From positions 195,656 through 259,655 of the forward strand of contig CAYMZG010000001.1 of NCBI GenBank assembly GCA_964394925.1: a DNA stretch of 64,000 bases, given 5' to 3'. Shown one piece after another: positions 8,422-55,991 of the stretch (position 1 is the stretch's first letter; every line of letters starts with the position of its first letter). The translations under genes and the position numbers were made by a program. A model generated the notes under the pieces. It saw only the letters and a list, made by a program, of their open reading frames with translations. It made no database searches and was not told the DNA's origin. This DNA comes from an uncultured Candidatus Saccharibacteria bacterium (GTDB lineage: Bacteria > Patescibacteriota > Saccharimonadia > Saccharimonadales > CAYLGV01).

Positions 8422-11400
8422 TTATACCTGCTGTGCCTTGATTAAGCGTGGCGTTTTTCCAGCAGGGAAGCTTCTTCGCCTGGTTGGGGTTCCATAATTA
8501 ACACGGAGCCGCCTACTGCCCAAAGGATCAAATTGTCCACGGTTATTGCGAGTCATTCGTTTCTTGAGTGTCTCTTTCCCCTTCTTGGTGAAACTGAAAT
8601 TCACCGTTCCATCTGCTTCAGTCACAAGTTCGTAATCCGGCTCTTCGCCTTGCTTTGTCGGGAATGAACGTCTCAGTTCCATTTCGGCGTGACGTGGATC
8701 TACGTGCCAACCGTTGAAAACACCATTAATCTGGAATTGAATACGTTCAACAATCTCATCAAAATCTTTCGTTAATGATTCGGCTGGTTGATCAGCTGGT
8801 AACGAGGCAGTTCGGGCTTGATAGCCACCACTGTCAAAATCATTCCATGCTGCTGAGATAGGTCTTCCGTTACGATATTCACCTTCGAGACGACTCACAT
8901 CACTATCAATTGTAGCCCCATTAGCGATAACAATCGTATCGTCATCCGAGCTATCGTCGGTGCTTTGTGTGTAACTTGTTCTACTTATCCAGTTAAATAA
9001 TCTCCTACTGCCATACCGTTCAGCTGATAATCGTCTGTGGAGTGGTGAAGCGATTCTGCGAACGGCTTTTATTCGACTACCGACACTTAGATCGTCAGAA
9101 CCCGCGCCAGTATCTTCACCAAAGCCGATACTACCTACGGCAGCAAGCGTCGACAATCGTACGGCTGTATTAGCACCGCTTGTCTGAATATTTACGTCGA
9201 TGCCTTTATTACGAGCTCGTTGTGCAGAACCACTGACGCCAGCAAGCACCTGTAGCGCGACCGCTAGGCCGGGAAGATCTTTGGTCTGTTCGATACCAAA
9301 CCGCAAGCGGCCAACTGCAGCATCTGCGCCATCATTTTCTACAGCTGATACCATGTTCGCAATATAGTTTTGAGAAATACCTTTTGCGTCTGCATCATTA
9401 CGAATAATAACAACCTCGTGATCTGGCTCCATACGACCCTCGTCTATGGACTTCTTTGTAGCTAGGATGGCCGTATCAAATAACCTGCGTACTACATGCC
9501 CAATAATACCTTTGTCTACTTGTTGTTGCGTTAACTGACTTTGTACAACGGCAATACGTAAGCTTGGGTAAGCTTGCTGAGCTCGTTCGATCTCGGCCAG
9601 TGTATGCTGAATTTTTTGCTGCGCCTCAACTGTGCGTCCAGCAGTTTCTGGCCAGTTAACATTAAGAAGGATCTGCGTACTCGCTTGATCTTCCTCTGGT
9701 TGTTGTCCATAAAGACTAAGTGCTTCAAATATATTGTCGCCTTCATTAATACCCGCCACTGGCATAACGACTACGGCACGTGTGTTGTCATCTAAACTCG
9801 ATAGCTGCGGTGAATTATTGATCTGCTCGCGTATTGAGTTAACATATTCTTCACCCTGACGCTCAGCAACAAGATCATCGTACCAATCGACAGCTTCAGC
9901 AGTTTGAACTCGAGCGCGTGGATTGTTGAGCAATGTTGGCAGTGTGTCAGCAATTAATTCATCGATTTCTTCAGGTGTTTGAGGCCCGTAGCGTCCATAC
10001 TCATAACGTACGCGAGGGTCTATCGTGCGCGGGTTAATCGTACCCTCCAGGTTCCTGCGAGCATAGATTGGTATAACTGGAGATGCTTCGACAAGCTCTT
10101 CGGTAGGTATTTCACCATTGAAGACAATTGTTTGAATTGTTTCAGGCGCAGGATGAATGTCAAGTGACGTCATATGAACGGCGCGAGTTGTCGTAATAAC
10201 GTCTGTTAAATTACCGGGATTGTTTGTTCCGACATAGGTACCCAAAACCTTGACCTGCTCGCCAGAAGGATCAGTGACACCAGTGTGCTCCATAACTTCA
10301 AAATAGCCACCCTTGAAAACACGATGACCATCTTCAATGGCAAAAAGTTGATGTATGGGGCTCGTCGGAGGAATGGTGGCAATAACGCGACCCTCAGGAG
10401 AGGTTGTAAATTGAAAATCAAAGACGCTGTTCTGTGAATCTTTTGTTGCCGAAATTGCTAGACTTAATTTGCCCTCAGAAACAAGTGCGTGTGGATTAGC
10501 CGACTGATTAGCCCAAAAGGAACCATTCGGTGTCATTGGAGTGATATCAAGCCTCACATTACCGTCAGCATCAAACCAACTATCGTTAGCCCCACCCGCG
10601 TAGGTTCGTAGTTCATTAAGGTCAAATATGTTTGGCGTGTTGTTGTTATACCACAATGTTCGATGAACTTGGTGCGTATCTGCGAGGTGATGTTGCACGA
10701 AGTCATCAGGCGAAAGATTAACCGGCTCTTTGCTTTCGATTAAACTCGTTACGTCATTTACGCCAATGCCACCGGCACGCAATTCCGCAATACTATCATT
10801 GGTAAGACTACCATCTGGATTTAGATGAAGGGCATGCACAACACCACCGTGTTGATCAAGAATACTCCAATTACCTGGGCTTACTTCTTTGATTGCGTAC
10901 TCATTAGCAAGAGAGATGGTATTACTTCCAATAACCACATGCTCTTGTACACCTGAAAGTGTTGGAGTTTGGAATGTTTCATCAACTCGGAAGCCAAGGC
11001 TGGCAAGGTTTTGTTTGCTCTCGCTCGTTAATAGGCCTTTGTCATCATATGCAATACCTATCGTCTTGCCAGTGGATTGTTGTTCAATGATCCAGTGCCC
11101 CTGCGCATCTTGCTTTGTAATATAACCATTTACATCAGCAAACTTTGAGTGTGGATTGAGTTCTGTTATCGTGCCGGTTAGATCACTATGGGGTGGTTGG
11201 CCGTGGATGAGCTCTGACAGCTTATTAAAGGCTCCGTTCGTCATGGTAGACCGGGCACCAGCAGGGGCCTTACCCTCTCCGATCCCATACAATTGATCAC
11301 CGATAACTGGCATGTGAGCAATTGCTTCTTGCGTAGCTGCACCCAAGATAATTCCAACGGTTCCGCCGATCAAAGCAGCCTTGAGCACATGTTTGCGATG

Positions 11401-12909
11401 AATATGCTTAAAGATTTCATCTTTGGCCGTCACGTCACCTTCAATTTGTGCAACAACTGCCCTGTCCATTAGCTGAGCTATGACGTCGAGGGAGTTGATA
11501 TTTTCATGTAAGCCTACTTCCTGACGCAGCCAGTCTAAGCCGCCTTTTTCTTCGAGGAATTGTTCCAAAGCCGTTTCAGCATAAATGGTAGTGAGTGCGA
11601 GCGTCAGGCGTTCTTCGGCAACATCTTCAGCGTGCGAAAAATGAATCAGGTCAATGTCGCGCTGATCAGATAAACGATTACGGGCTTTTATCTGGGCAAT
11701 TACCCCCATAGCATCCAAAAAGCCTTCGGGAGTAAGTTCCCGAAGTTTACGTAAGCCATCTTCACCTGGTTCACTATCAGCAAACAGTGCATCAAGGTTC
11801 TCGGCGAGAACGCGCGCACTTACGGTCTCATACTGAGCTGTTTCTAGCTCTTGGCGTCGTGGTGCATTAACGTCAAAGACTTCACCCATTGCTCGTTCGC
11901 GAGCATGTTGACGTCGATCTTCACGAATGTGCTTTGACTCACGCGCACCAGCTATAACAGCACCACCCGCTCCAAGCACGCCAGTAATGGCTGCCGCTCG
12001 AGCAACACCCTTTTGTACTGTAAATCTTGTGGCAGAGGCGATAATCGAAACAACGGTCGTCACTGTTGTTTCGTTCAACCACTGACCAACTTTTGTCTTT
12101 TGGATAGTCTCAATGAGCTGATCGGTTTTTCCAAAATGAGCCTCAGTACGAACGCCGGTCTTGAAGTGCCCCACATCAATCTGCGCTTCCGCGAGAATAG
12201 CATCAACACCCCTGTCATGGCGGACCATGCCACGCACGTTTTGAGCAATTTCTAGGAGGTTATCAGCAAACATAAGACCTTCACCCAGAAGCTCAGGGTT
12301 CTGTTGAGCCAACATGGTCAATCGACGGTTTTTCTCTTCTTCAAAGTTAGCATCGTCTAAGTCGCCACGGCAATAGCTATCAATAAGGTCACGAATCTCG
12401 TGCTTAATGGTGACCGCTTGTTCATCTTGTGCATTGTCGATACGAGCATAGGCTTCACCCGCATCTTGACTTGTCAGCTCATCAATATGGGTATGTGTTA
12501 ATCGTGTTACGACCGAACCAAGCGTTTCATCTGAAGCAGCCCTGTCGAGACCCTGATGCACATAGAGATTACCGCTTTCAACAATCTCTTCTTCTGCTTC
12601 CCGATGGTACCTTTGTTGATAGTACTCACGAGCAATACTGCCCTTCCAAATTCGTCTGAGCAAACCCCTAAAACCACCACCTTGTGTTTCAGCATTGAGT
12701 CTAGCATCGGCTGCATCTCGGGCCAAGGCACGAACATCTTCAATGCCACCAATGGCAATATGTAGCGAGGCGGGATCGGCCTCTTCCAATTGGTGCTGCT
12801 GATTTAGAGCATCTATCTCGGCTTGACGCTGCTCAGGTGTTAGACCTAAGTCGTCATGTATACCTTCTTCTGGTGGTGAAGGTACGTGCGTTACGGTAAT
12901 CTCTGTCAT
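8422..12909 (-). CDS. giant membrane protein with C-terminal GT-A (GT2-like) glycosyltransferase domain
   Basis: 1495-aa uninterrupted ORF. Hydrophobic segments lie near aa 290-335 and 520-545. The C-terminal ~400 aa carry AVVVMPVAGINEGDNI, a DxD-type VVIIRNDADAKG, and IQTSGANTAVRLSTLAAVG...GEDTGAGSDDLSVGSRI, laid out like GT2 enzymes. Confidence 0.7.
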   Translation of the reverse strand: MTEITVTHVPSPPEEGIHDDLGLTPEQRQAEIDALNQQHQLEEADPASLHIAIGGIEDVRALARDAADARLNAETQGGGFRGLLRRIWKGSIAREYYQQRYHREAEEEIVESGNLYVHQGLDRAASDETLGSVVTRLTHTHIDELTSQDAGEAYARIDNAQDEQAVTIKHEIRDLIDSYCRGDLDDANFEEEKNRRLTMLAQQNPELLGEGLMFADNLLEIAQNVRGMVRHDRGVDAILAEAQIDVGHFKTGVRTEAHFGKTDQLIETIQKTKVGQWLNETTVTTVVSIIASATRFTVQKGVARAAAITGVLGAGGAVIAGARESKHIREDRRQHARERAMGEVFDVNAPRRQELETAQYETVSARVLAENLDALFADSEPGEDGLRKLRELTPEGFLDAMGVIAQIKARNRLSDQRDIDLIHFSHAEDVAEERLTLALTTIYAETALEQFLEEKGGLDWLRQEVGLHENINSLDVIAQLMDRAVVAQIEGDVTAKDEIFKHIHRKHVLKAALIGGTVGIILGAATQEAIAHMPVIGDQLYGIGEGKAPAGARSTMTNGAFNKLSELIHGQPPHSDLTGTITELNPHSKFADVNGYITKQDAQGHWIIEQQSTGKTIGIAYDDKGLLTSESKQNLASLGFRVDETFQTPTLSGVQEHVVIGSNTISLANEYAIKEVSPGNWSILDQHGGVVHALHLNPDGSLTNDSIAELRAGGIGVNDVTSLIESKEPVNLSPDDFVQHHLADTHQVHRTLWYNNNTPNIFDLNELRTYAGGANDSWFDADGNVRLDITPMTPNGSFWANQSANPHALVSEGKLSLAISATKDSQNSVFDFQFTTSPEGRVIATIPPTSPIHQLFAIEDGHRVFKGGYFEVMEHTGVTDPSGEQVKVLGTYVGTNNPGNLTDVITTTRAVHMTSLDIHPAPETIQTIVFNGEIPTEELVEASPVIPIYARRNLEGTINPRTIDPRVRYEYGRYGPQTPEEIDELIADTLPTLLNNPRARVQTAEAVDWYDDLVAERQGEEYVNSIREQINNSPQLSSLDDNTRAVVVMPVAGINEGDNIFEALSLYGQQPEEDQASTQILLNVNWPETAGRTVEAQQKIQHTLAEIERAQQAYPSLRIAVVQSQLTQQQVDKGIIGHVVRRLFDTAILATKKSIDEGRMEPDHEVVIIRNDADAKGISQNYIANMVSAVENDGADAAVGRLRFGIEQTKDLPGLAVALQVLAGVSGSAQRARNKGIDVNIQTSGANTAVRLSTLAAVGSIGFGEDTGAGSDDLSVGSRIKAVRRIASPLHRRLSAERYGSRRLFNWISRTSYTQSTDDSSDDDTIVIANGATIDSDVSRLEGEYRNGRPISAAWNDFDSGGYQARTASLPADQPAESLTKDFDEIVERIQFQINGVFNGWHVDPRHAEMELRRSFPTKQGEEPDYELVTEADGTVNFSFTKKGKETLKKRMTRNNRGQFDPLGSRRLRVNYGTPTRRRSFPAGKTPRLIKAQQV

Positions 12910-13401: not shown

Positions 13402-14955
13402 TTACCCATTGATACGATGAGTGAAGATGTAGTGTGCAGCTGCACCTACAGCACTCACTGCCGCGAAGATAGCAACCATGCTACCAGGGCCGGTGTTTGG
13501 CAGGACCGTTGGTGTTGTTGGGGTTACTGGCTTGTTGGTTGTCACTGCTGTCTTACATGCAGAACCAACAACCGTTTCGTCTTTGCCATTTACGGTGAAA
13601 ACGAGTGAAGCCTGGGTTGTGTACGTACCGTCTTGGGTGTACTGGTGCTCAACCGTTGTTTGGTCAGTTAGTTTTGGTGAAGAGTTATCACCAAAGTTGT
13701 AGCTGATTGACTTGAGCTGAGCTTGCACAGCAGTGTACTTAACCGTAAAGCTGTATTTGCGATCGCCAAGGCTTGAAGCCGTCAAGAGATCACAGGTGTA
13801 AACAGGCTTATTCGGGTTACAGTTCTGACGTGTGATGACGACATCAGCCGTATCCTGAGTTTCAGGTGTTTGGTCTGACCGTACATAACCAAGGTTACGT
13901 ACACGCACCTCACAAGGATCAAAGTTACCTTCAACCTTGGTTGAGAACATCATGTAGAAACCACCGCCAGGGGCAAAGTTGCCAACATTGATACCACCAT
14001 CAAACAGTGGCTTGTCGGTCTGTGCAGTTGAACCGTTAACGGTAATGAACTTTACAGAACCGCTGTCGAGCTTCACGTTTGGCGGCAAGACATCACGAGT
14101 CACTATGTTGTTTAGATTAGATGGACCAGTGTTTTGCGTGGTTAGCAACCATTCAACCGTATCACCAGGCTTAGTAGCTACCTCTTTGTGCCAGGTAGAT
14201 TCACCCTTCATACGCACTTGCTTAGTAAATTTAACACTCGGGGTTGCCTTAACAACTACCTTTACGCGGATCTGTACAACGGCTTCGTAATCAAAGCAGC
14301 CAGGGAAGTTACCGTTAAGGGCGTCATAACCAACTGGTGCACCTGCGGTGCTAACAATACTGTCAGACAACTGGGTGCCATTCTTAAATGGACCATTGTT
14401 GTACAGAATTGCAGAACCAGGAATATATTCCACTTTGAATGCTTTGTTATCCACAAAGTCCACCGTATCTTCTACCATTGCAGCGTTGCTCGCACTGATA
14501 TAGCCACGAGCACGAAGGCTTGAGGCTTCAGCTGTAGGCAAAGCAATACGTACATTGGTGTTACGGGCAATACCAAGGCCGCTTGCGTTCGTTGACTGGT
14601 TGGCATTGTTGTGCACATACATACGTACCACAACTTCTTTGGAGCCACCTGTCACATCTTCCAGTACATTCTTGTAACTACCTGAGGCAGTTTGATCACT
14701 ACGACGAGCATCTAAAAAGGCTCGCTCATCACCATAGCTTGGCGTATTAATGAATGAGTTGAAAACGGGGCCATTTAATGAACCTACACGTTGATCAAGA
14801 ATGTTGTAATCGTACGTAGGACGATTAGGGTAAAACTCGGCAACGGTGACAGCAGATGCGCTAACGGCAGCTACTGCGCCCACCAAAGCGACACCAACGA
14901 GGACACGCTTAGGAAGTTTTTTTGTTAGATCTCGAAGTTTGGTAAAAATCTTCAT
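13402..14955 (-). CDS. LPXTG-anchored cell-surface protein with DUF11-like and PKD-like repeats
   Basis: Start at ATG 14955 with a GGAAGAAAGGA SD. It has an N-terminal signal/anchor (KRVLVGVALVGAVAAVSASA) and a PKD-like segment (YSFTVKY...YNFGDNS...HQYTQDGTY). The C-terminus is LPNTG, then a hydrophobic stretch, then HR (sortase signal). Confidence 0.8.
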   Translation of the reverse strand: MKIFTKLRDLTKKLPKRVLVGVALVGAVAAVSASAVTVAEFYPNRPTYDYNILDQRVGSLNGPVFNSFINTPSYGDERAFLDARRSDQTASGSYKNVLEDVTGGSKEVVVRMYVHNNANQSTNASGLGIARNTNVRIALPTAEASSLRARGYISASNAAMVEDTVDFVDNKAFKVEYIPGSAILYNNGPFKNGTQLSDSIVSTAGAPVGYDALNGNFPGCFDYEAVVQIRVKVVVKATPSVKFTKQVRMKGESTWHKEVATKPGDTVEWLLTTQNTGPSNLNNIVTRDVLPPNVKLDSGSVKFITVNGSTAQTDKPLFDGGINVGNFAPGGGFYMMFSTKVEGNFDPCEVRVRNLGYVRSDQTPETQDTADVVITRQNCNPNKPVYTCDLLTASSLGDRKYSFTVKYTAVQAQLKSISYNFGDNSSPKLTDQTTVEHQYTQDGTYTTQASLVFTVNGKDETVVGSACKTAVTTNKPVTPTTPTVLPNTGPGSMVAIFAAVSAVGAAAHYIFTHRING

Positions 14956-14980
14956 ATTATTCCTTTCTTCCATTGCAGCC

Positions 14981-16072
14981 TTATGGCTGTCCTGGCATGC
15001 CTGTCTGAGGTTGAGTTGTTGATGGAGCCGTAACACGTACCGGTGGCTGAGTGTTAGTAGGCTGAGGGCCAGTACTTGCTGGTGTACTATTAGGTGATGT
15101 TGTAGGAGCTACATATACCGTTGTAGGAGCAGCAGTTGGCTTTGGTTCCTGTGGTAAGTAGCCGTCAGGGTTGGGTGTTTGACCCGCTGGGCCAACTCCC
15201 GGCTTATCTGGCGTACCATGATCTTGATCAGCTGGTACATTTGGATTACCCGGAAGACGACCGTCGTCATGCTTGAGTGGAATGCTAGGAACAAATGGAG
15301 GCTGGTCAGTTGGACCTTCTGGCAATGGGACATTTGCTGTTGGAGGAAGTACAATGTTGCCACAGCGAGCAAGTATGTAGAAAGTCTTTGAGCCATCTTT
15401 GGTGTCAATATTTACACGAATACCTTTGCGGTCACCAGAGATACCATTTTGACCAGAGACAACGACAGTGCCATCAGAGGCGGTGCCGGTATTCCTGCCG
15501 TCTGCAGGCACGTCTCCAACCTGTGGGGCCTGATCACCAGTACGTATAACCGAAGCTTTGAGTTGGGTGCTTAACGCTTGTGCTCGTGGAGTCGCACACT
15601 TACCTTCGGCATCTTGAAGCTCAGCAGGTGTTACGTTTACGTTCAGTAATGCGTTTGCTGTGCCGGCTAGTAGCTCGGGATCAGCTTCAATAAGATTAAA
15701 CCAAACATTTACACCATTCTCAGCGTCTGGGCTTGAACCTGCTTGAGCGTTCTTGATAGCGGGGACACCTTCGGCATAATATCGATTCGTATCGCCAGCA
15801 TTTGCTTGCACAATTGGATACGTACCAGGGCATGCTTCAGCCGGTGCTGTACCGGTTGTTAGGGTTGTGCCTGAGGTACCAGGAGCACCTTCAGTGCCAA
15901 CTCCAGTTGCACAGCCACTCAAAGCTAAACCGCCGACAACAGTCACGGCCGCTATATCTCTTTTTCGCTCTCCTACCCAGTCAGCAACACGGTTTATTGT
16001 GTTGTGCAAGGCATCGTGCACTGCTACCAATACGGCAGGCTGTGACTCAGGAAACTCGTTAGCTCGTTCCAT
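14981..16072 (-). CDS. proline/threonine-rich putative lipoprotein
   Basis: Start at ATG 16072 with a GGAGG SD. A lipobox LSGC follows the hydrophobic segment AAVTVVGGLA. The C-terminal third is a P/T/Q-rich low-complexity tail. Confidence 0.65.
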   Translation of the reverse strand: MERANEFPESQPAVLVAVHDALHNTINRVADWVGERKRDIAAVTVVGGLALSGCATGVGTEGAPGTSGTTLTTGTAPAEACPGTYPIVQANAGDTNRYYAEGVPAIKNAQAGSSPDAENGVNVWFNLIEADPELLAGTANALLNVNVTPAELQDAEGKCATPRAQALSTQLKASVIRTGDQAPQVGDVPADGRNTGTASDGTVVVSGQNGISGDRKGIRVNIDTKDGSKTFYILARCGNIVLPPTANVPLPEGPTDQPPFVPSIPLKHDDGRLPGNPNVPADQDHGTPDKPGVGPAGQTPNPDGYLPQEPKPTAAPTTVYVAPTTSPNSTPASTGPQPTNTQPPVRVTAPSTTQPQTGMPGQP

Positions 16073-16103
16073 ATATACCACCTCCTCAGGCTTATACCGT
16101 AAC

Positions 16104-16132
16104 AATTTAACATAAAAGGTAAAATATGTCAA
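16104..16132 (-). promoter_or_regulatory. sigma70-type promoter (TTGACA-17 nt-TGtTAAATT) for the lipoprotein/LPXTG operon
   Basis: On the minus strand, -35 TTGACA is at 16132-16127, followed by a 17-nt spacer and -10 TAAATT at 16109-16104 preceded by TG. It lies about 31 nt upstream of ATG 16072. Confidence 0.6.
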
Positions 16133-16243
16133 TAATTTCTGCAATAATATTAAATAAACGCAAGCATTTTAGGAAGATGACACTACTTGATGATTCTAAG
16201 TACTACTTTTATTTACTTGCGCGTATCTGTTAAAGATGAAGAC

Positions 16244-18532
16244 TTACGTTGTTTTTGTCGTTGCAGTACTGCCTACTTCTGATACATCAGAATTTGGTTC
16301 AGTTTTTTTCTTTGTTTGAGTACTACTAACCTCGCTGGTATCACCTTCTCGTTCAGCTAACGCCGCTAACTTCGATTTTTGGAAACTAAAACCAAAGGTA
16401 CTGCCCTTGCCCGGGTCACTCTTAAAGATAATGCTGCCCCCCTGGGCCACCACCACTTTTTTGGCCATGAACAGGCCCAGGCCGGTGCCATCGGGGCGCG
16501 CCTTTTTGGCGTTGGCGGCACGATAAAACTTGGTAAACAGGTGATGCTGCTCGGCTTTTGGCACCCCAATTCCATCATCAGATACGGTGTACTCAATGAT
16601 GTCACCCTTGTCTTTAAGCTCTACATTAATGTGACCATCGTCTTTACTGTAGTAAATGGCGTTATCCATGAAGTTCATGATAACCTGGCGAATCTTAGTT
16701 TCGTCGATCATCACCGTTGGGAAGTTTTCTGGCTTTTGATATGTAAGTGTTAATCCGCGTGCCGTGGCAGTATCGATAAGCTGGTGCACTTCACCCTCGA
16801 CCACGTCGGCCAGATTAGATGACACGGCCTCAATCACAAACTTACCGGTGCGCAAACGCGAGACATTCAAGAGGTCAGCAATCAGGTAGACCATACGCTG
16901 CGAGCTAATAAAGGCCTGGTCAAGCAGCTTGTGCTGCATCTCGTTAATTTCACCAGCATCACCCTCCAAAACCATGCTCAGGTAGCCCTTTACGCTTGTA
17001 AGTGGTGTTCTGAGCTGGTGAGAAGCCATGCTAATGAACTCATCCTTGGTCTCGTCCATCTGTTTGAGCTTGTCATTGATCTTTTTCAGTTTTCGTGTCG
17101 CATCGTCTACTTTATCTTGTAGAGTAGAGTTAAATTTCTCAATCTCTTCGAAGCGAAGACCGTTTTGTATGGCAATTACTAGTTCGTTGGCGATAATTTC
17201 AAGATTTTGTATATCTTGCTTATTGTATGGATTTCCACTCTTTTTTTGTCCAAAGATAATACTGCCTACCCCTTCTACATCATAATCAAGGGTTGCTACA
17301 AGCCTAACCAAAACGGCAATATCATTTTTTATTAAGATGTCTTTTAAATCTTTGTGATCTTCCTCTAGAAAATCTGATACGATTACTTTTTCTCGCATGT
17401 GAATTGCTTGTTTGTTGATAACGCGTATGTCATCTTCTGTTATTCCGATACTTGAATCACTGATAATCCTTCGATCAAAATACGAAGTTTCTCGGATGGA
17501 GAATAGCGTAAAACTTGCTTTTAAATTGTCTTCGATAACTTTTGTTACTTCAGTAAGTAACTTGTTGATCTCAATATTTTCTACCAATACATTATTCAAC
17601 CTATCAAGGAATGCCTGCGTATCATATGCATCACGATAAAATATTCGCCTAGTAATTCGATCAAAGAATAATTTAATGGATTGAAAAGTGAATGCCATAG
17701 CAATAGCTGTTGCAGTAAACACAAATTCCTGCATCGTTCTTGAGGCACTATCTAACACAAAGTTGTTGATTACCAAGAAGACAACCGCACCATACGCTAG
17801 ACCTAACGTAAGTATCGACAATATATAGCCAATTGAACGTGCTATAATCAGGCGAATATTAAAAAGACCATGTTTTACAACGCTATAATATAGGCCAAAA
17901 ACCATTATGGACATTGGTAAAATACCAATGTTAGTTAAGCCGAACCAGCCAGTTACCGCCGGTAACAAAGATTGCGTAACCATAACTAACGTCAAAGAAA
18001 TATACATACTCCTGAAGAGAACTCTTAGGCGTGCTTTTTGTTTGCCCTCTGAGACTCTTATATTTCGCCACAGGATATACATTGCGTTTACTAACAATAA
18101 GAGTAGAACTACAAAATATACATAAATGAATGGACCGAAAGTAACTGCATATAATTGATCTTGTTTAACAGATCCTTTGACAATTAGGGGCGTAAAAGCG
18201 CTTACACCAACCAACAGAAGCGGGATATAGCACTTTTTAATGATCGAAGCGGCTTTTTTATCGCCAGTCAGTATGATGACAAACTTATTTAGCAAGAATG
18301 CAGCCGCAAAACTAAAGCCAAATACAAAGTAAGTTGCTACAGTCGCTACTTGTGGCGGATTGTGTAGATCATTACTAATATAGTTAGCCATTATCCAAAC
18401 ACTAATGCAAATACAAAAAACAATGAATATCCGGTTTAAGACTAAATAACGATTTTTTAAAAACGTAAGTAAGCCAAGAGCAATCAAAGCAATAACAACA
18501 AATAAATCAATAAGGAAGTAAATGTTTAGCAT
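16244..18532 (-). CDS. sensor histidine kinase with N-terminal multi-TM (7TM-type) sensor domain
   Basis: 762 aa with about 7-8 N-terminal TM helices and a coiled coil. H-box MASHQLRTPLTSVKGY, HATPase boxes NFMDNAIYYS, DDGIGV and GTGLGL, and a C-terminal S/T/K-rich tail. Confidence 0.88.
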   Translation of the reverse strand: MLNIYFLIDLFVVIALIALGLLTFLKNRYLVLNRIFIVFCICISVWIMANYISNDLHNPPQVATVATYFVFGFSFAAAFLLNKFVIILTGDKKAASIIKKCYIPLLLVGVSAFTPLIVKGSVKQDQLYAVTFGPFIYVYFVVLLLLLVNAMYILWRNIRVSEGKQKARLRVLFRSMYISLTLVMVTQSLLPAVTGWFGLTNIGILPMSIMVFGLYYSVVKHGLFNIRLIIARSIGYILSILTLGLAYGAVVFLVINNFVLDSASRTMQEFVFTATAIAMAFTFQSIKLFFDRITRRIFYRDAYDTQAFLDRLNNVLVENIEINKLLTEVTKVIEDNLKASFTLFSIRETSYFDRRIISDSSIGITEDDIRVINKQAIHMREKVIVSDFLEEDHKDLKDILIKNDIAVLVRLVATLDYDVEGVGSIIFGQKKSGNPYNKQDIQNLEIIANELVIAIQNGLRFEEIEKFNSTLQDKVDDATRKLKKINDKLKQMDETKDEFISMASHQLRTPLTSVKGYLSMVLEGDAGEINEMQHKLLDQAFISSQRMVYLIADLLNVSRLRTGKFVIEAVSSNLADVVEGEVHQLIDTATARGLTLTYQKPENFPTVMIDETKIRQVIMNFMDNAIYYSKDDGHINVELKDKGDIIEYTVSDDGIGVPKAEQHHLFTKFYRAANAKKARPDGTGLGLFMAKKVVVAQGGSIIFKSDPGKGSTFGFSFQKSKLAALAEREGDTSEVSSTQTKKKTEPNSDVSEVGSTATTKTT

Positions 18533-18606
18533 TTACTTATATTCTACTAGTTTAGTGCCATAACCGAAATATAAAACAATACATTTGCGGTTGGATTGAA
18601 GACATA

Positions 18607-19551
18607 CTAGTTATTTTCGGATACTGCGGCTATGCGCCGATCACGATCTTCACGCGTGAAGCTTGCAGTTGGGTTCATGCCAAGCTTTTCACGAGCAAGC
18701 ATTGAGCCAAGGCGTCGGTAGAAAGAAAGTCTAGGCATACGAGATGTACCGCCCTGCATAGTATAAGCATCCATCCATGCAAATTTTGGCGCCCAGACAA
18801 TACCCTTTCTCTTGTTGCCGTTTCCATTGGTCATATGCAAAAATCCTTGCGAAGCCCCCATTGCTGATGCAACATCAACACCTTGTGCAATTGATGGGAG
18901 TGGCGCATCTTCTTCATTTGCTACTGCCATCAATGTACGGCTATCTGCATAGGTCGGTAAATAGGGTAAACAACGTGAAATATCAAGTTTTTGCTCTCTC
19001 ACTTCGTCAATTGGCATATCTTTAGGTAAGCCCATCATGGTACGAAACGTGTGTTTCCCATCTGGATGGAATGATGTAATCTGTCCTGCAAAGCCAACGT
19101 TCATTAGAAAAACCGTAGGAATACCCCGTCGATGTGCTTCGTCTGATATCATTGCACCCAAATCAAGGTGAGTTAATTCAGTCTCATCAAAAATAAGTGT
19201 TGAGCGACTGAGGAAATCTTCAATATTTTCCTCGGTGACCCCATCTGTAAATATCCTTACATCTGCTGCGGGATTAATCTCATGTACCATGTCTCGAAAT
19301 ACTTCCGCTTTATTTCTGCCATAAGTATTCGTAGTTGCACCTGGTACACGATTAACATTTTCTGGTTCAAAAACCTCCGGGTCAGCTACATCAAACGTGC
19401 CTACACCCATACGAGCTAACTTTTGGCCAAGTTGGAACCCATCTCCTCCAACCCCGGCAATGGATACACGTGCTGCCATTATCGCTTGCTGTTCAGATTC
19501 ATTCCAAAAACCGTAGTTTCTTGAGAATTCTGGACTATTAACAGATAACAT
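18607..19551 (-). CDS. ThiF/MoeB/E1-like adenylyltransferase family protein
   Basis: 314 aa. Rossmann motif IAGVGGDGFQLGQKLARMGVGTFDVADPEVFEPENVNR and downstream LIFDETE...GIPTVF match the E1-like nucleotide-binding fold. The C-terminal ~120 aa are unassigned. GAGG SD. Confidence 0.7.
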   Translation of the reverse strand: MLSVNSPEFSRNYGFWNESEQQAIMAARVSIAGVGGDGFQLGQKLARMGVGTFDVADPEVFEPENVNRVPGATTNTYGRNKAEVFRDMVHEINPAADVRIFTDGVTEENIEDFLSRSTLIFDETELTHLDLGAMISDEAHRRGIPTVFLMNVGFAGQITSFHPDGKHTFRTMMGLPKDMPIDEVREQKLDISRCLPYLPTYADSRTLMAVANEEDAPLPSIAQGVDVASAMGASQGFLHMTNGNGNKRKGIVWAPKFAWMDAYTMQGGTSRMPRLSFYRRLGSMLAREKLGMNPTASFTREDRDRRIAAVSENN

Positions 19552-19571
19552 GTTTACCTCAAACTTCCTGA

Positions 19572-20408
19572 TTATGCTGCTCTGTTGCTACCTTTATTAC
19601 TAGGCGCAACATCTTCAACAGTTAAATAACGCATACTTCTCTCGTTTTGAGCAATTTCTTGAAGTGTACCGGGTGAAACAAGCTCAATAAGCTCTCCTAA
19701 TTTATCCGTATCAATTGAGATACCGATGTTTTCAGATGCATATTCTGGTATGTGTTTTAGGTCTGTGACACGCTCGATGGGAACAAGACGCTTTTGCAGA
19801 CGATGCTCCAGAAATGTCTCAATAACACCGAATGTAGGCCTTATGTCATGACTTAAGATGTAAGAGGCTGAGTTAAAGAATAGTGGCCATGTTAAATTAC
19901 CCGCTATTCGTGGTTCTTCATGACGACAGATATAACGTGAGACTTCAGTACTATTTAATGCAACTGGGTTTACGTCAAAAACCTCTGGAAAAAAATCCTC
20001 AATTGGGAGCTTTCGTGCATCTTGCATGGATTTAATAATTAATCGCATACTTGCGACGACACGGCCGTCGCCTTGTTCCACATTTTCAATAATTCCAAAA
20101 TGCACAGACCTAACATCATTTGCATCAGTTTCTGTACCATCAGGGTTTACATGATCCTTGGGAATAAACCCGGCCTGTTCAGCATATACGTTTGCACGAA
20201 GCCTAAGATAGCCTTGGTGTTCTCGTTCCAACCCGGGAAGTACTTCGTTACCTGTTGCCAACATCCCAACTGCGAAACGTGCTTCAGGGTGATCGGCAAA
20301 CAAGTCGGTTTCTATCCTCGGGATAACCGATTCATTCGTTATTGGTTGAGTAGCATTCGACATAATTGATTCTGCCATTACATTATTTACTTTGAATAAA
20401 AAAGACAT
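19572..20408 (-). CDS. GNAT-superfamily acyltransferase of the LuxI/FeeM (autoinducer synthase / N-acyl amino acid synthase) type
   Basis: YLRLRANVYAEQAGFI...DGTETDANDVRSVHFGI...GRVVASMRLII...EVSRYICR follows the pattern of LuxI/FeeM-fold enzymes. The start is uncertain: ATG 20408 is the first AUG after the predicted TSS, and ATG 20378 is the alternative. Confidence 0.5.
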   Translation of the reverse strand: MSFLFKVNNVMAESIMSNATQPITNESVIPRIETDLFADHPEARFAVGMLATGNEVLPGLEREHQGYLRLRANVYAEQAGFIPKDHVNPDGTETDANDVRSVHFGIIENVEQGDGRVVASMRLIIKSMQDARKLPIEDFFPEVFDVNPVALNSTEVSRYICRHEEPRIAGNLTWPLFFNSASYILSHDIRPTFGVIETFLEHRLQKRLVPIERVTDLKHIPEYASENIGISIDTDKLGELIELVSPGTLQEIAQNERSMRYLTVEDVAPSNKGSNRAA

Positions 20409-20476
20409 CGTCACCAACAATCAAGCTGCAGTTGATTGCCAATGACGATGTCTGATCTACTAAAGTACTGTGCAAC

Positions 20477-20505
20477 ATTCTAGCAAATCACCCAGTACTT
20501 GTCAA
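20477..20505 (-). promoter_or_regulatory. near-consensus sigma70 promoter (TTGACA-17 nt-TGcTAGAAT) driving the acyltransferase/E1-like (and possibly kinase) genes
   Basis: On the minus strand, TTGACA is at 20505-20500, followed by a 17-nt spacer and TAGAAT at 20482-20477 preceded by TG. Confidence 0.65.
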
Positions 20506-20535
20506 GATAATTGATCCTCACCGTAAGTAACAAAT

Positions 20536-20563
20536 TTGTAATTAACTAGCTCCGTACTACAAT
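20536..20563 (+). promoter_or_regulatory. candidate promoter (TTGTAA-16 nt-TACAAT) for the REC-only gene array
   Basis: TTGTAA 20536-20541, 16-nt spacer, TACAAT 20558-20563. Divergent from the 20477-20505 promoter. Confidence 0.4.
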
Positions 20564-20606
20564 AACCAGCAAGGAATCACATAACTAGCAGACAAAAAGC
20601 ACAAAT

Positions 20607-20990
20607 ATGAAAAAAATTACCATTGTCGAAGATGATCATGCCATTTCCAGTATGTACAAGTTTAAGTTGGAGAATGCTGGCTTTACGGTGACAACCGCGG
20701 CCGATGGCCGTGAAGGCCTGGAAATTATTGAGCAAGCTCGCCCAGATCTCATCCTGCTTGATCTGCGCATGCCTGTTATGAGCGGCGATATAATGCTTGA
20801 AAAACTACGCGCTAAAGAGTGGGGTAGCGACATTCGCGTGGTGGTGCTCACCAACATCAGCCGTGATGAAGCCCCAGCTAACCTCCGTTTTTTGCATGTA
20901 GATCGCTATATTGTAAAAGCCCATCACACCCCTGCTCAAGTGCTCGATATTGTGCATGAAATTCTAGCCAAGAACACCACAGTACAATAA
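20607..20990 (+). CDS. single-domain response regulator (REC only), copy 1
   Basis: 127 aa with EDD acidic pocket, LILLDLRMP phospho-acceptor Asp, VLTN and YIVKAHHTP Lys. No output domain. Confidence 0.88.
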   Translation: MKKITIVEDDHAISSMYKFKLENAGFTVTTAADGREGLEIIEQARPDLILLDLRMPVMSGDIMLEKLRAKEWGSDIRVVVLTNISRDEAPANLRFLHVDRYIVKAHHTPAQVLDIVHEILAKNTTVQ

Positions 20991-21027
20991 CAGCAACATA
21001 ACCCTGGTCATGAAGCAGATTTACAGG

Positions 21028-21033
21028 CATAAT
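21028..21033 (+). promoter_or_regulatory. -10-like hexamer CATAAT 6 nt upstream of ATG 21040 (leaderless candidate)
   Basis: CATAAT, then aaagct, then ATG. No SD. Confidence 0.35.
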
Positions 21034-21039
21034 AAAGCT

Positions 21040-21429
21040 ATGAAAAAGATCGTACTTGTCGAAGATGACCAAATGCTGGCCGAACTATACCAAACACGTC
21101 TTGAATTGGCGGGTTATACCTGTCTGGTTGCTAATGATGGCTTGTGGGGTTTGTCTCTAATTGAAAAAGAGTTGCCTGACTTGGTGTTACTTGACCTCAT
21201 GCTGCCCAATCTGAGTGGAGACGAAATCCTGCGCGCTATGCGCAGTAGTGACTGGGGCAAAAACATTAAAGCTATTTTCCTGACGAACATCAGTGAATCA
21301 GAGGCCCCCGAAGGTATTCAAGAGCTCGGTTTTGAGCAGTATATTATAAAAGCTAACCTGGTAAATGATCAGCTCGCCGAGATTGTTCGAAACTATGTAA
21401 CGCCTGATTCACAACCGAGTCTGGCCTAG
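21040..21429 (+). CDS. single-domain response regulator (REC only), copy 2
   Basis: Start at ATG 21040 (MKKIVLVEDDQ). LVLLDLMLP, FLTN and YIIKA motifs. Confidence 0.88.
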   Translation: MKKIVLVEDDQMLAELYQTRLELAGYTCLVANDGLWGLSLIEKELPDLVLLDLMLPNLSGDEILRAMRSSDWGKNIKAIFLTNISESEAPEGIQELGFEQYIIKANLVNDQLAEIVRNYVTPDSQPSLA

Positions 21430-21467
21430 GAATATGTGAGCTAATTTGCCTCGAAACCTAAAAGGAG

Positions 21468-21475
21468 TGTAGAAT
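21468..21475 (+). promoter_or_regulatory. extended -10 (TGTAGAAT) 6 nt upstream of ATG 21482 (leaderless candidate)
   Basis: TGTAGAAT, then tctgtt, then ATG. The nearest GGAG is 14 nt away, too far to act as an SD. Confidence 0.4.
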
Positions 21476-21481
21476 TCTGTT

Positions 21482-21850
21482 ATGCCAAAGGTAGCCATCA
21501 TTGAAGACGACCAAGCTATCTCCCAAATGTACCGCATAAAGTTTGAGGCGGAAGGCTTTGAAGTTGAAACCGCCGAAAACGGCCGTTTGGGCCTAGAACT
21601 TGTTGAAAAAATGCGCCCCGACATCATCTTGCTTGACTTGATGATGCCCGAAATGACTGGCGACGAGATGTTGCAAGAACTCCGTACCAAAGACTGGGGC
21701 AAAGACATCACCGTTATTATTTTGACCAACATGGGCGAACAAGAAGCCCCTGCCATCGTACGTCAACTCAACGTGAAACGCTTTATTGTTAAAGCCGAAA
21801 TGACTCCTCGCCAAGTCGCCGAGATGGTCAAAGCTGAACTCGGCGTTTAG
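21482..21850 (+). CDS. single-domain response regulator (REC only), copy 3
   Basis: 122 aa with IIEDD, IILLDLMMP, ILTN and FIVKA motifs. Confidence 0.88.
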   Translation: MPKVAIIEDDQAISQMYRIKFEAEGFEVETAENGRLGLELVEKMRPDIILLDLMMPEMTGDEMLQELRTKDWGKDITVIILTNMGEQEAPAIVRQLNVKRFIVKAEMTPRQVAEMVKAELGV

Positions 21851-21854
21851 CCGG

Positions 21855-22592
21855 CTAGAGAACTTTTAGTAGACGCGTCTTTATGTAGCTACTTTCTTCC
21901 CTTGATACTTCAATCAAGGGCTCAGAGAAAGTAGTCGGTTCTCTATTAAGTATTACCGTCTGGTGAGCTTTGTTGACTCGCAACGAGTTGAATGAAAGCG
22001 TTGCTACTAAGGCTTGCTGTTCAATCGTTGGTCGATGGAAGACATCTGCTTTAATGTGGTGCATGCTGCCTTGTGTGACTGTACGTGGTTTGATTGATGT
22101 CACCTTTACTGGTTTGTTAGAAACGGGTGTAAGGGTTTGACCGACTGTACTTGGAACAATGTAAAAATCGTGGTTCATTTGGTGTGAACCAATTTCAGCC
22201 TGTCCGCCATCTTGCTCGTTTCGTTCAGGGGTTACCAGAATGTCGCTGTATGTGCCCACAATTGCCAGAGATGCAATGTGTCGAATATGGTCATGTGCAA
22301 CTTCTTGCGTAAGTATACGTGATTCGTCGCCAGGCCAAACATGAAGCTCCAAGTATCCTATCCTTTCATGGATACCAATTCTATAATTCATAAAGCCTGT
22401 TGGATCCCAATTACCATGGAAGTCCTCTAGGCTAGGGATAACTTCTGTTGCAAAACGATCCGTAATTGCTGGTAAGACATCGTAGGCATGTGCAAAGAAT
22501 ACTTCCGGATCAGTCAAACCAAAGTCATCATAAAAAGCGGCCTCAGGTCTGCCCAACACGGAAGTACCAAATTTTGCCTCCAATACTGACAT
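21855..22592 (-). CDS. hypothetical protein
   Basis: 245-aa ORF with no antisense competitor. It has His-rich patches (HDHIRH, HQMNHD) but no family is recognised. Confidence 0.55.
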   Translation of the reverse strand: MSVLEAKFGTSVLGRPEAAFYDDFGLTDPEVFFAHAYDVLPAITDRFATEVIPSLEDFHGNWDPTGFMNYRIGIHERIGYLELHVWPGDESRILTQEVAHDHIRHIASLAIVGTYSDILVTPERNEQDGGQAEIGSHQMNHDFYIVPSTVGQTLTPVSNKPVKVTSIKPRTVTQGSMHHIKADVFHRPTIEQQALVATLSFNSLRVNKAHQTVILNREPTTFSEPLIEVSREESSYIKTRLLKVL

Positions 22593-22606
22593 AGTATTGT
22601 TTTATA

Positions 22607-22900
22607 CTAATCTGGTTTTATTTTCAACTGTTTACTTTTTGGTCTTTGTTTTTTACGTTTTTCAAACTCAACAACACATACTGTACCCGCGAATGCCCCT
22701 AATGATAGTGGGATTAGATAAAGCTTGTTATCCACGTAACTTAGTATTCCAATTGCACTAAGAAAATAGATGAAAGAACTTAATGCGCCAGCTCTTAATG
22801 ATTTATGCTTCATGACAGCAAAGGTATATGATGCATAGACAGCATCCAACAACCCTGCCAGACAGAACAAGAGTAAGGCATACCACAGATTAAATTGCAT
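22607..22900 (-). CDS. small integral membrane protein (3 predicted TM helices, basic tail)
   Basis: 97 aa with three hydrophobic segments and a C-terminal KRKKQRPKSKQLKIK. Confidence 0.55.
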   Translation of the reverse strand: MQFNLWYALLLFCLAGLLDAVYASYTFAVMKHKSLRAGALSSFIYFLSAIGILSYVDNKLYLIPLSLGAFAGTVCVVEFEKRKKQRPKSKQLKIKPD

Positions 22901-25904: not shown

Positions 25905-26144
25905 ATGGGTACGGAAAAACTAGGGGATCTGACGCCGTTTACAGACGCCGAACTAGGAAGCACACCGCAACTTTCGCGTGGCAACCTGCTTGGTGGTGCC
26001 GCTCTTGAGGCGACAAAATCTTCAGATGAAAGTCTTGAGGGGTTGACGCCGTTTACAGACGCCGAACTAGGAAGCACACCGCAACTTTCGCGTGGCAACC
26101 TGCTTGGTGGTGCCGCTCTTGAGGCGACAACTGATCAAGAATAG
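25905..26144 (+). CDS. 79-aa protein made of two 38-residue units
   Basis: Strong AAGGAGGAG SD before ATG 25905. Sequence: MGTEKLGD-[LTPFTDAELGSTPQLSRGNLLGGAALEAT]-KSSDESLEG-[same 29 aa]-TDQE. Confidence 0.6.
   Translation: MGTEKLGDLTPFTDAELGSTPQLSRGNLLGGAALEATKSSDESLEGLTPFTDAELGSTPQLSRGNLLGGAALEATTDQE
25930..26130 (+). repeat. perfect 87-nt direct repeat (25930-26016 and 26044-26130) separated by 27 nt; period 114 nt
   Basis: Base-by-base comparison shows identity over 87 nt. The flanks diverge immediately on both sides. Confidence 0.9.
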
Positions 26145-55790: not shown

Positions 55791-55951
55791 AATGTGTTAC
55801 ACTACCCCACGTTAACAATTTAAATATACAGAGTGCAGCGAGAGATCTAGCTCTATGACCTGCCAGCAACCTGCTTCTTGGTTTACATGCCACAGTAAGG
55901 TGCTCCATCTAGCCCGCACAAGTGAGCGGGAAAGATATGAACTCATCCTTC

Positions 55952-55985
55952 ATCCTTTCTTGCCCACAGCATGTGCAGAAAGGAT
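55952..55985 (+). promoter_or_regulatory. SD-sequestering hairpin in the metK leader (ATCCTTTCT pairs with AGAAAGGAT)
   Basis: Perfect 9-bp complementarity between 55952-55960 and 55977-55985. The 3' arm contains the AAAGGA SD, 6 nt before ATG 55992. A second CATCCTT copy lies immediately upstream. Confidence 0.4.
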
Positions 55986-55991
55986 ATTTTT

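Follow-up and report, generated by a model that had tools for sequence, protein, structure and literature searches.

A synthase-ThiF gene pair joined to a 7TM histidine kinase in Saccharibacteria: a candidate oxidase-less pathway for N-acyl amino acid-derived molecules

What do a LuxI/FeeM-fold acyltransferase and a ThiF-type adenylating enzyme make, and why do their genes share an operon with a membrane histidine kinase in an uncultured Candidatus Saccharibacteria bacterium? The question is raised by a 64-kb stretch of DNA (hereafter the window) from contig CAYMZG010000001.1. Homologous loci were fetched for comparison; they are designated by L-numbers, and the positions given for them are locus-internal. 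The locus in question is a three-gene operon encoding an N-acyl amino acid synthase-like protein (NAS), a ThiF-type enzyme, and a seven-transmembrane (7TM) histidine kinase, and it faces three genes for receiver-only (REC-only) proteins. It is somewhat probable that the two enzymes form a NAS plus ThiF-cyclase pathway lacking the usual oxidase, which would make a molecule derived from an N-acyl amino acid, and that this pathway is coupled to the 7TM kinase with its REC-only phosphorelay. The six genes are as follows.

19572 to 20378, minus strand: N-acyl amino acid synthase-like protein (LuxI/FeeM-fold GNAT), 268 residues, assigned by Pfam, fold, and alignment.
18607 to 19551, minus strand: ThiF-family ATP-dependent adenylating enzyme (putative N-acyl amino acid cyclase), 314 residues, assigned by Pfam ThiF and NCBIfam.
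16244 to 18532, minus strand: sensor histidine kinase of the HisKA_7TM type, 762 residues, assigned by HisKA, HATPase_c, and hydropathy.
20607 to 20990, plus strand: REC-only response regulator 1, 127 residues, Response_reg 70.5 bits and no other domain.
21010 to 21429, plus strand: REC-only response regulator 2, 139 residues, likely shorter and starting from MKKIVLVEDD, Response_reg 62.1 bits.
21482 to 21850, plus strand: REC-only response regulator 3, 122 residues, Response_reg 78.2 bits.

An earlier note, made from the letters of the window, had placed six genes at these coordinates, and all of them are present in the list of open reading frames (ORFs). The gaps that it gave, 20 nt between the NAS and ThiF genes (19552-19571) and 74 nt between the ThiF and kinase genes (18533-18606), are exact. 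Its start codon for the first gene, a TTG at 20420, had to be corrected, since this TTG falls within a 22-bp hairpin of the leader. The gene starts at the ATG at 20378, which gives the 268-residue form in public collections, or at the ATG at 20363, which is suggested by the alignment with homologues beginning with MS..D. The note also saw no gene for a ubiquitin-like protein (Ubl), ThiS, MoaD, or a precursor peptide beside the ThiF gene. This was confirmed by checking the ORFs of at least 20 residues in 18450-20660, none of which ends with GG or resembles ThiS, MoaD, a Ubl, or a precursor peptide. The gaps between the operon genes are too small to fit one, and the idea of a neighbouring gene for a precursor peptide or a Ubl was discarded.

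The first protein was proposed to have the LuxI/FeeM fold, and this assignment was borne out. Among Pfam families, PF13444 alone exceeds its cut-off (Acetyltransf_5; 26.5 bits, cut-off 22.4); this family serves in finding N-acyl amide synthases. Pfam FeeM lies just under its cut-off (22.9 bits, cut-off 27), and among the NCBIfam models there is a weak match to the exosortase-associated acyltransferase TIGR03694 (39 bits). An AlphaFold2 model made with 33 homologues has a mean predicted local distance difference test score (pLDDT) of 93. When it was compared with solved structures by Foldseek, the CoA-dependent N-acyl-homoserine lactone (AHL) synthases BjaI, RpaI, and MesI led the list, followed by LasI, TofI, FeeM, and EsaI. 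The identity of an ordinary N-acetyltransferase, raised in the earlier note as the outcome that would speak against its proposal, was rejected because of this family and these folds. The motifs quoted in the note are present and map to the invariant family columns R61, Y65, D85, D88, R112, E145, S147, and R148. A profile search of 1.84 billion representatives gave a family of 191 members at E<=1e-30. According to Grigg et al., these structural neighbours are shared by TyzA, for which N-acyl amino acid synthase activity is proven. Thus, the fold confirms a LuxI/FeeM-like enzyme, but both AHL synthases and N-acyl amino acid synthases are compatible with it.

The pairing itself has a direct biochemical precedent. 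A NAS and a ThiF-like ATP-dependent cyclase make N-acyl oxazolones in the OxzAB pathway of Pseudoalteromonas (rubra), the TyzACB pathway of M. tuberculosis, and the TrzAS pathway of M. tuberculosis, M. smegmatis, and Rhodococcus (PMC10404671, PMC12856293, bioRxiv 10.1101/2020.06.11.147165). In these pathways, the NAS acylates Tyr, Phe, or Trp from acyl-CoA, the ThiF-like enzyme or domain cyclises the N-acyl amino acid to an oxazolone at the expense of ATP, and a flavin oxidase of the nitroreductase superfamily (FDO) desaturates the oxazolone. In the case of TrzS, the cyclised but non-oxidised compound builds up when O2 is limiting or when the oxidase carries the R540A mutation, so that cyclisation is independent of oxidation, and the D217A variant of the ThiF domain loses every step after acylation (PMC12856293). 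The oxazolone pathways are the closest known system, and the mechanism proposed below for the window pair is drawn from them. The earlier note left this precedent unnamed.

Does the second protein fit such a cyclase? It is an adenylating enzyme of the ThiF/E1 superfamily, as had been proposed (Pfam ThiF, 104 bits). Its best NCBIfam models are PRK08223 (158.7 bits, residues 8-290), PRK14851 (110.9 bits), and PRK14852 (95.9 bits). A set of ATP-binding residues is invariant among 36 homologues (R11, GxGGDG, D57, N65/N67/R68, K81, and D122), and the GVGGDG Rossmann motif pointed out before belongs to this set. No invariant Cys and no CxxC pair that could form a catalytic or zinc site were found among the 36 homologues, and the single Cys of the window protein is not invariant. 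The AlphaFold2 model has a pLDDT of 92, and its closest folds are ThiF, AclA (9EGB), PaaA, MoeB, and MccB. The closest relative in a species-level scan, from a metagenome-assembled genome (MAG) of Saccharimonadia, is 75% identical. AclA of Tenacibaculum discolor, a recently solved ThiF-like protein (PDB 9EGB/9EGC, titled "in complex with substrate"), ranks high among the matches in both sequence and fold, and its structure may be the best template for this ThiF clade. A literature search on PRK08223, PRK14851, PRK14852, and the Tenacibaculum AclA gave nothing useful.

The protein that defines PRK14852 was informative. It is a 989-residue protein encoded by plasmid pDV of Nitratidesulfovibrio vulgaris (L081:4059-7028), lies in a PEP-CTERM/exosortase locus, and is annotated as "ThiF family adenylyltransferase". 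Pfam and NCBIfam matches reveal a natural triple fusion of a FeeM domain (43-198), a ThiF domain (316-565), and an Acg/nitroreductase-type oxidase domain using flavin mononucleotide (620-985). Judging by its domains, the fusion would contain a whole oxazolone pathway in one polypeptide. PRK08223 scores 354 bits on its ThiF domain, which is above the cut-off, and the window protein is 30% identical to this domain over 287 residues (E = 1e-32), including the C-terminal half. A search of plasmids for ThiF-FDO fusions recovered only Desulfovibrio plasmids. A ThiF relative with 36% identity was found in a Solirubrobacterales locus (L079), in a cluster of FeeM, Acg-type FDO, ThiF, and major facilitator superfamily genes; it scores 173 bits on PRK08223, about as the window protein does. 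In a Frankiales MAG (L077:5989-7990), the gene after that of a ThiF relative encodes a fusion of a FeeM-type synthase and a cyclic-nucleotide-binding domain, another direct link between this chemistry and signalling.

Searches for the oxidase by jackhmmer with two queries matched only L079 and the pDV locus L081, and nothing in the 64-kb window or in any other fetched locus, those of Saccharibacteria and Microbacteriaceae all included; the precomputed Pfam tables of the longer flanks contain no FDO either. The window pair therefore represents an oxidase-less variant, for which a saturated 5(4H)-oxazolone or an acyl-adenylate derivative is expected. Like TyzACB and OxzAB (N-acyl tyrazolone biosynthesis), the locus has a LuxI/FeeM-fold NAS beside a ThiF-family ATP-dependent enzyme that would act on a small molecule, the best profile of its ThiF protein is the ThiF type fused to FeeM and FDO, and its gene order, synthase before cyclase, is that of oxzAB. 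It differs from them in that no FDO is fused or adjacent, so that no desaturated, chromophoric oxazolone is expected, in that its ThiF protein stays under the PRK08223 cut-off, and in that a 7TM histidine kinase gene is part of the operon, with REC-only genes opposite. The two-step logic is shared with TrzAS (Rv1356c-Rv1355c, N-acyl tryptazolone). TrzS combines ThiF and FDO in one protein of about 720 residues, whereas the Saccharibacteria versions consist of ThiF only (314-400 residues), and the window protein reaches only 55 bits on the Rv1355c (TrzS) model. In another Saccharibacteria kinase operon (L086), a ThiF domain of the Rv1355c type is found at the equivalent position; it scores 252 bits and covers profile positions 12-340, that is, the cyclase part without the oxidase. 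With ThiF, MoeB, E1, and TcdA enzymes, the window protein shares the Rossmann-like fold, the ATP-binding motifs, and the catalytic set of an Arg finger and an Asp, whereas it has no sulfur-carrier or Ubl partner, no zinc-binding Cys pairs, and no catalytic Cys.

Is the pair common in Saccharibacteria and elsewhere? The earlier note had suggested a census of the gene pair, and I performed one on 71 loci, taking one genome per species and annotating the loci with profiles of NAS, ThiF, and the kinase. In 69 of the 71 loci, the NAS gene immediately precedes the ThiF gene, and one exception is due to a contig end. In Saccharibacteria, a kinase gene with a homologous membrane domain follows the ThiF gene directly in all 24 loci (gap of 0-99 nt, 949 nt in one locus), and one to three REC-only genes are located divergently upstream in 19 of them. 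The remaining 47 loci belong to Actinomycetota (Leucobacter, Herbiconiux, Agreia, Cryobacterium, Rathayibacter, Microbacterium, Acidimicrobiales, and others) and have the pair without such a kinase. Divergent from the pair, about 41-43 of 45 Actinomycetota loci encode a conserved protein of about 285 residues (e.g., L005:8123-8980, minus strand). This protein belongs to the TetR family by profile (PDB TetR regulators, E = 6e-7), and TetR_N matches were found in five of nine members; a single sequence gave no Pfam or NCBIfam match. The product of the pair might be received by this protein, or the protein might act as a repressor responding to it. A 245-residue ORF beside the third receiver gene of the window is unrelated to the TetR-like protein. 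Both phyla thus have the pair connected to a signal-transduction protein, namely TetR in Actinomycetota and the kinase plus its receivers in Saccharibacteria. From the comparison of loci, I infer that the product or a precursor is sensed, and this double linkage is the strongest comparative argument for it. The divergent pairing of NAS-ThiF with TetR in Microbacteriaceae resembles the synthase-receptor layout of the AfsA/ArpA gamma-butyrolactone systems; the differences are the chemistry, the long (about 285 residues) and unclassified TetR protein, and the absence of the TetR gene from the window.

Several Saccharibacteria loci keep the kinase and the receivers and differ in the enzymes. The kinase operon of L084 has a diverged NAS and a 352-residue ThiF protein. 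That of L086 (L086:3872-5951) encodes a 280-residue protein and the 400-residue ThiF protein of the Rv1355c type mentioned above, with no oxidase; the 280-residue first protein has no profile similarity to the NAS family. The operon of L085 (L085:1845-5967) has no NAS or ThiF gene and encodes an LPG_synthase_C-domain protein, two unknown proteins, and four REC proteins. As judged from these gene contents, the kinase/REC frame is constant while the synthase cassette is swapped between Saccharibacteria lineages. A neighbour-joining tree of ThiF sequences (L010-L084 plus the window), which is rough and has no support values, shows the Saccharibacteria and Microbacteriaceae sequences interleaved, with 50-57% identity across the phyla. 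The oxidase-linked L079 and the pDV fusion fall outside this clade, and so do L077 and a Rhodococcus plasmid sequence, which have no oxidase nearby. The interleaving suggests gene transfer between the epibionts and the Actinobacteria of the host lineage; Leucobacter is a cultured host of Saccharibacteria.

The third gene of the operon was described before as a multi-transmembrane histidine kinase, and its domains agree with that. HisKA (57.9 bits) and HATPase_c (90.4 bits) are both above their cut-offs, and the boxes SHQLRTPL, NFMDNAIYY, DDGIGV, and GTGLGL are visible. The protein consists of a multi-pass membrane domain with about nine hydrophobic segments (residues 1-290 or so), a GAF-like region, a coiled coil, HisKA, and HATPase_c. 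PF16927 (HisKA_7TM) is not reported for the window kinase at E<=0.1, and precomputed matches to it exist for many full-length homologues with 33-45% identity; "7TM" is right as a family label because the homologues carry this domain. A search with the sensor half found 356 proteins of a similar architecture of about 730 residues, many of them with PF16927. The three receivers are paralogous, as had been noticed. They contain only Response_reg, each above the cut-off, and all have the EDD, LLDL, LTN, and (I/V)KA motifs; the first and the third are 58% identical, and the second is 43% identical to either of them. They are the only REC matches in the window, and the operon kinase is the only kinase match. 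A synthase gene adjoining a polytopic membrane histidine kinase, and receivers without a classical DNA-binding output, are also features of LuxM/LuxN, CqsA/CqsS, and LqsA/LqsS/LqsR. In contrast to the LuxM/LuxN-type pairs, the window synthase does not belong to PF00765 above the threshold, a ThiF-type second enzyme is obligatory, no HPt, LuxO-type, or LuxR-type regulator was seen, and the ligand-receptor relation is a candidate only.

From the gene content, the folds, the family affinities, the conserved linkage, and the absence of an oxidase nearby, I infer the substrates, the product, the sensing relationship, and the output as follows. As its family membership suggests, the synthase would take an acyl group from an acyl-CoA or acyl-ACP (acyl carrier protein) thioester and attach it to an amino acid at the amino group. 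The ThiF enzyme would then adenylate the N-acyl amino acid's carboxylate with ATP, and the amide oxygen or another nucleophile would displace AMP. By comparison with OxzB, TyzB, and TrzS, a saturated 5(4H)-oxazolone (azlactone) may result, or else some different derivative that is activated or cyclised. With no flavin oxidase, the product would not be desaturated to a stable chromophore of the tyrazolone or tryptazolone kind. The lipid-like product or the N-acyl amino acid formed by its hydrolysis may be sensed by the kinase via the membrane or the GAF-like domain, and the kinase would phosphorylate the REC-only proteins, which would act through protein-protein contacts and not through DNA binding; these last two steps are suggested by the linkage of the genes. 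The expression of the operon may be controlled by a strong promoter combined with a conserved leader motif and a terminator hairpin, which suggest attenuation or small-RNA control.

Several points weigh against this pathway. The FDO, which is the defining component of the characterised oxazolone pathways, is absent at the window locus, and the search for it covered the window and flanks of 6-10 kb, not whole genomes. The ThiF-like protein is below every curated NCBIfam cut-off (PRK08223, 266; PRK14851, 1170; PRK14852, 1337), and its kinship to TyzB, OxzB, and TrzS was read via profiles and the ThiF domain of the fusion, not from their own sequences. BLAST detects no similarity between the NAS and the FeeM domain in the pDV fusion. 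A saturated oxazolone is labile and so may be an intermediate, not the end product. Saccharibacteria are not known to make fatty acids, which makes the acyl donor uncertain. The earlier note supposed a small molecule and its sensor; the enzyme families, the conserved pair, and the kinase linkage partly support this idea, but the co-transcription of the kinase with the enzymes does not show product sensing. The mean pairwise identities in 20 species-level loci are 37% for the NAS, 40% for the membrane domain of the kinase, and 32% for the GAF-like linker, and 57% for ThiF and 61% for the kinase core. A diversifying signal-receptor pair would show such a pattern, but the evidence is weak, since faster evolution of sensor domains than of kinase cores is the general case.

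What else could the locus do? The enzymes might make an N-acyl amino acid aminolipid, or an azlactone that acylates an envelope amine, from scavenged host lipids, with the kinase and the receivers monitoring the envelope. PF13444 contains aminolipid synthases such as OlsB as well, the Mycobacterium oxazolone products are described as lipids, and the conserved neighbourhood contains genes for a Mur ligase, glutamate racemase, and sortase-type surface proteins. The kinase core, moreover, is most similar to kinases of the PnpS, WalK, and PhoR types, but this similarity is limited to the generic catalytic core. The Actinomycetota pair is tied to a TetR regulator in a layout typical of small-molecule-responsive control, and cassette swapping under a constant kinase/REC frame fits the diversification of a signal better than a housekeeping lipid, so an envelope lipid is conceivable and, on balance, unlikely. 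Classical AHL quorum sensing, with a LuxI-type synthase using S-adenosylmethionine (SAM) and an acyl thioester, a LuxN-like kinase, and an accessory ThiF enzyme that, for example, re-lactonises acyl-homoserine, is a still weaker candidate and very unlikely. It would agree with the AHL synthases as the top solved folds, with the conserved order of the R...Y, D..D, R, and E.SR motifs, with the supply of SAM (the window has a SAM riboswitch and metK), with the name AHL synthetase given by JGI to some homologues, and with the filing of such genes as LuxI homologues by Bernard et al. 2020 (PMC7567580). The fold is non-discriminating, however, as the neighbours of TyzA tell. PF00765 (Autoind_synth) gave no match for the window NAS at E<=0.1, although some homologues have precomputed or weak matches. 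Of the N-terminal SAM-pocket residues, the equivalents of R, Y/F, D..D, and R are invariant, and the residue taken to correspond to Trp34 of the LuxI family varies, being F in the window NAS and mostly M elsewhere, as mapped by eye from the EsaI/LuxI numbering. AHL synthesis needs no ATP-dependent partner, yet ThiF is the most conserved gene of the operon and adjoins the NAS gene in 69 of the 71 loci.

The substrate of the ThiF enzyme might also be the NAS protein itself, whose C-terminus would be adenylated as E1, ThiF, and MccB do with protein or peptide substrates. The C-terminus of a protein is chemically an N-acyl amino acid, and the NAS tails are peculiar: Ala is the last residue in 37 of 54 homologues, with AA or VA in 34, as compared with 17 of 157 ORFs of at least 250 residues in the Saccharibacteria loci. 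The tails are ...ER(A/I)A in the Leucobacter type and ...GG or ...SG in Herbiconiux, the diverged first gene product of L086 ends with RRRAA, and the tail is disordered in the AlphaFold2 model (the C-terminus of the window NAS is encoded at 19572-19590). Against this, many lineages keep ThiF and the kinase without the tail; only eight of 23 Saccharibacteria species-level proteins end with Ala, and several end directly after the last strand. The enrichment of Ala weakens among the more distant family members, the NAS C-terminus is not free in the natural pDV fusion, and the tail is equally well explained as an ssrA-like degron or a docking element. Such a tail could be a degron, a docking element, or an E1-type substrate end, and activation at the protein level is highly improbable. 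A defence or conjugation module with an E1 enzyme, the alternative kept in the earlier note, or a housekeeping ThiF, MoeB, or TcdA enzyme standing next to a GNAT gene by chance, can practically be discounted. TcdA is the best PDB sequence match of the ThiF-like protein (E = 1.6e-10 across 133 residues), and PADLOC gave weak matches to E1-E2 (Cap2) of up to 38.5 bits in the Rossmann part only. The score on the TcdA model NF011696 is 41.9 bits (cut-off 304) and covers residues 18-117 only, that on ThiF proper (TIGR02356) is 76.3 bits (cut-off 275), and the NCBIfam ThiF/MoeB models range from 40 to 76 bits (cut-offs 152-450; MoeB models alone, 40-57 bits with cut-offs of 266-633), all of them sub-threshold; these three identities were rejected on that account. 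The strict pairing with NAS is unexpected for a housekeeping enzyme. The defence systems that contain an E1 enzyme (CBASS Cap2, Bil, and 6A-MBL) were rejected because no Ubl, E2, JAB, ThiS, or MoaD gene accompanies the ThiF gene and the catalytic Cys and the zinc site are lacking.

The favoured pathway, an oxidase-less NAS-ThiF pair feeding a sensor, allows a further and bolder step. Because Saccharibacteria and their Microbacteriaceae hosts carry related, phylogenetically interleaved NAS-ThiF pairs, both could make one azlactone family. The locus may then be a channel for host recognition or cross-talk, in which the host reads the shared azlactones via TetR and the epibiont reads them via the 7TM kinase and the REC-only proteins. 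In such a channel, the REC-only proteins would act, for example, on type IV pili, cassette swaps would tune partner recognition, and the leader motif and the terminator would give the circuit an additional level of control by a small RNA or an attenuator. This extension is speculative and distinctly unlikely as a whole.

Has the module been described before? The earlier note stated that it was not described for Candidate Phyla Radiation (CPR) bacteria, and this was wrong. In a survey of quorum sensing in CPR bacteria, Bernard et al. 2020 (PMC7567580) listed 18 LuxI homologues beside a sensory kinase as candidate complete systems, and their Table S4 contains a Saccharibacteria genome with a LuxI-like gene at position 598 and a sensor kinase gene at position 600. 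Judging by the layout of the window, position 599 is presumably the ThiF gene; neither "ThiF" nor "adenylyltransferase" occurs in that paper or its supplements. Thus, the module was noticed before but filed as AHL quorum sensing, and this filing is corrected here. A literature search found no paper tying Saccharibacteria to oxazolones or NAS-ThiF pairs. What is new here is that the oxidase is missing, that the pair is obligatorily linked to a two-component system in Saccharibacteria and, in Actinomycetota, to TetR, that cassettes are swapped, that there is a leader element, and that the genes of epibionts and host lineage are interleaved in their phylogeny. How the ultra-small CPR bacteria find and recognise their hosts and regulate the association is largely unknown, and the locus is a compact and testable candidate, consisting of two enzymes with clear biochemical precedent, one kinase, and three receivers, with a counterpart in the Actinobacteria of the host lineage. 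It also suggests that ThiF-type N-acyl amino acid cyclases work without a flavin oxidase, which would extend oxazolone chemistry to reactive saturated azlactones. The cultured pair of TM7i and Leucobacter offers a system for testing the function.

How is the operon expressed? Upstream of the NAS gene, three elements were found on the minus strand.

20477 to 20505, minus strand: sigma-70-type promoter, TTGACA-17-TGcTAGAAT, with an extended -10 element, 11 of 12 positions matched.
20453 to 20470, minus strand: conserved leader motif CAGTACTTTAGTAGATCA (consensus AGTWCTTTAGYAGAT), identified by alignment and starting approximately at the predicted transcription start.
20396 to 20451, minus strand: terminator-like hairpin with a 22-bp stem including four G.U pairs (20405-20451), followed by CUUUUUUAUU, identified by a terminator scan.

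The near-consensus promoter with the TG extension had been reported before, and it is the sole site with 11 of 12 matches within 15900-22700; the scan of this region is not enriched overall (20 sites versus 15.1 +/- 3.5 in shuffled sequences). Promoters at the equivalent position were found in L001, L012-L016, L018, L085, and L086. The leader motif (15-18 nt) has a single copy in the window and aligns over 10 leader elements from nine loci, including L001:8964 and 9095, L006:9103, L011:4149, L012:5049, L015:5050, and L019:5067. When 2.27 Mb were scanned with a position weight matrix of the motif, two copies outside the training set were recovered (L086:3766 and L085:4528). Both immediately precede the kinase operon, and off-target sites reached far lower scores at best. 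The leader RNA folds with -39 kcal/mol (z = -5.7), and none of 200 shuffled sequences was as stable. Because of the G.U pairs, a stable stem can form in the transcript of the minus strand only. A hairpin and a T-run occur at the same position, with unrelated stem sequences, in L001 (two copies), L006, L011-L015, L019, L085, and L086. Beyond the terminator, L012, L013, and L015 have a second promoter, and the leader may therefore be a separate small RNA in these loci. The window has no room for a second promoter, and the operon must therefore be read through the terminator. No Rfam family matches the leader. These features suggest that an attenuator or small RNA, so far undescribed, belongs to the kinase operon. 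An ORF of 31 residues over the hairpin (20383-20478) was considered as a leader peptide and dismissed, as its ATG sits inside the -10 element.

Some other features of the window are described here for completeness. Downstream of the kinase gene lie a gene for a Pro/Thr-rich protein of 387 residues with no family match (14981-16144, minus strand) and a gene for a 544-residue protein (13402-15036, minus strand) with sub-threshold DUF11 and PKD matches, an LPNTG-type sortase signal, and a hydrophobic tail. CLIPPER/DUF11 surface proteins are encoded at the equivalent position in L001, L008, and L086. Further along, a 1495-residue ORF (8422-12909, minus strand) has no Pfam match at E<=0.001. On the other side of the locus, between a 324-residue ORF and the Mur ligase gene, a direct repeat of 103 nt is present (25914-26016 and 26028-26130), the copies being 93% identical and spaced by 114 nt; neither strand of the repeat folds better than shuffled controls, and no tandem repeats were found in 12-28 kb of the window. 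The SAM riboswitch (55821-55941, plus strand) scores 50.5 bits, which is above the gathering score, and lies upstream of metK (55971-56963, plus strand), which encodes a short S-adenosylmethionine synthetase of 330 residues.

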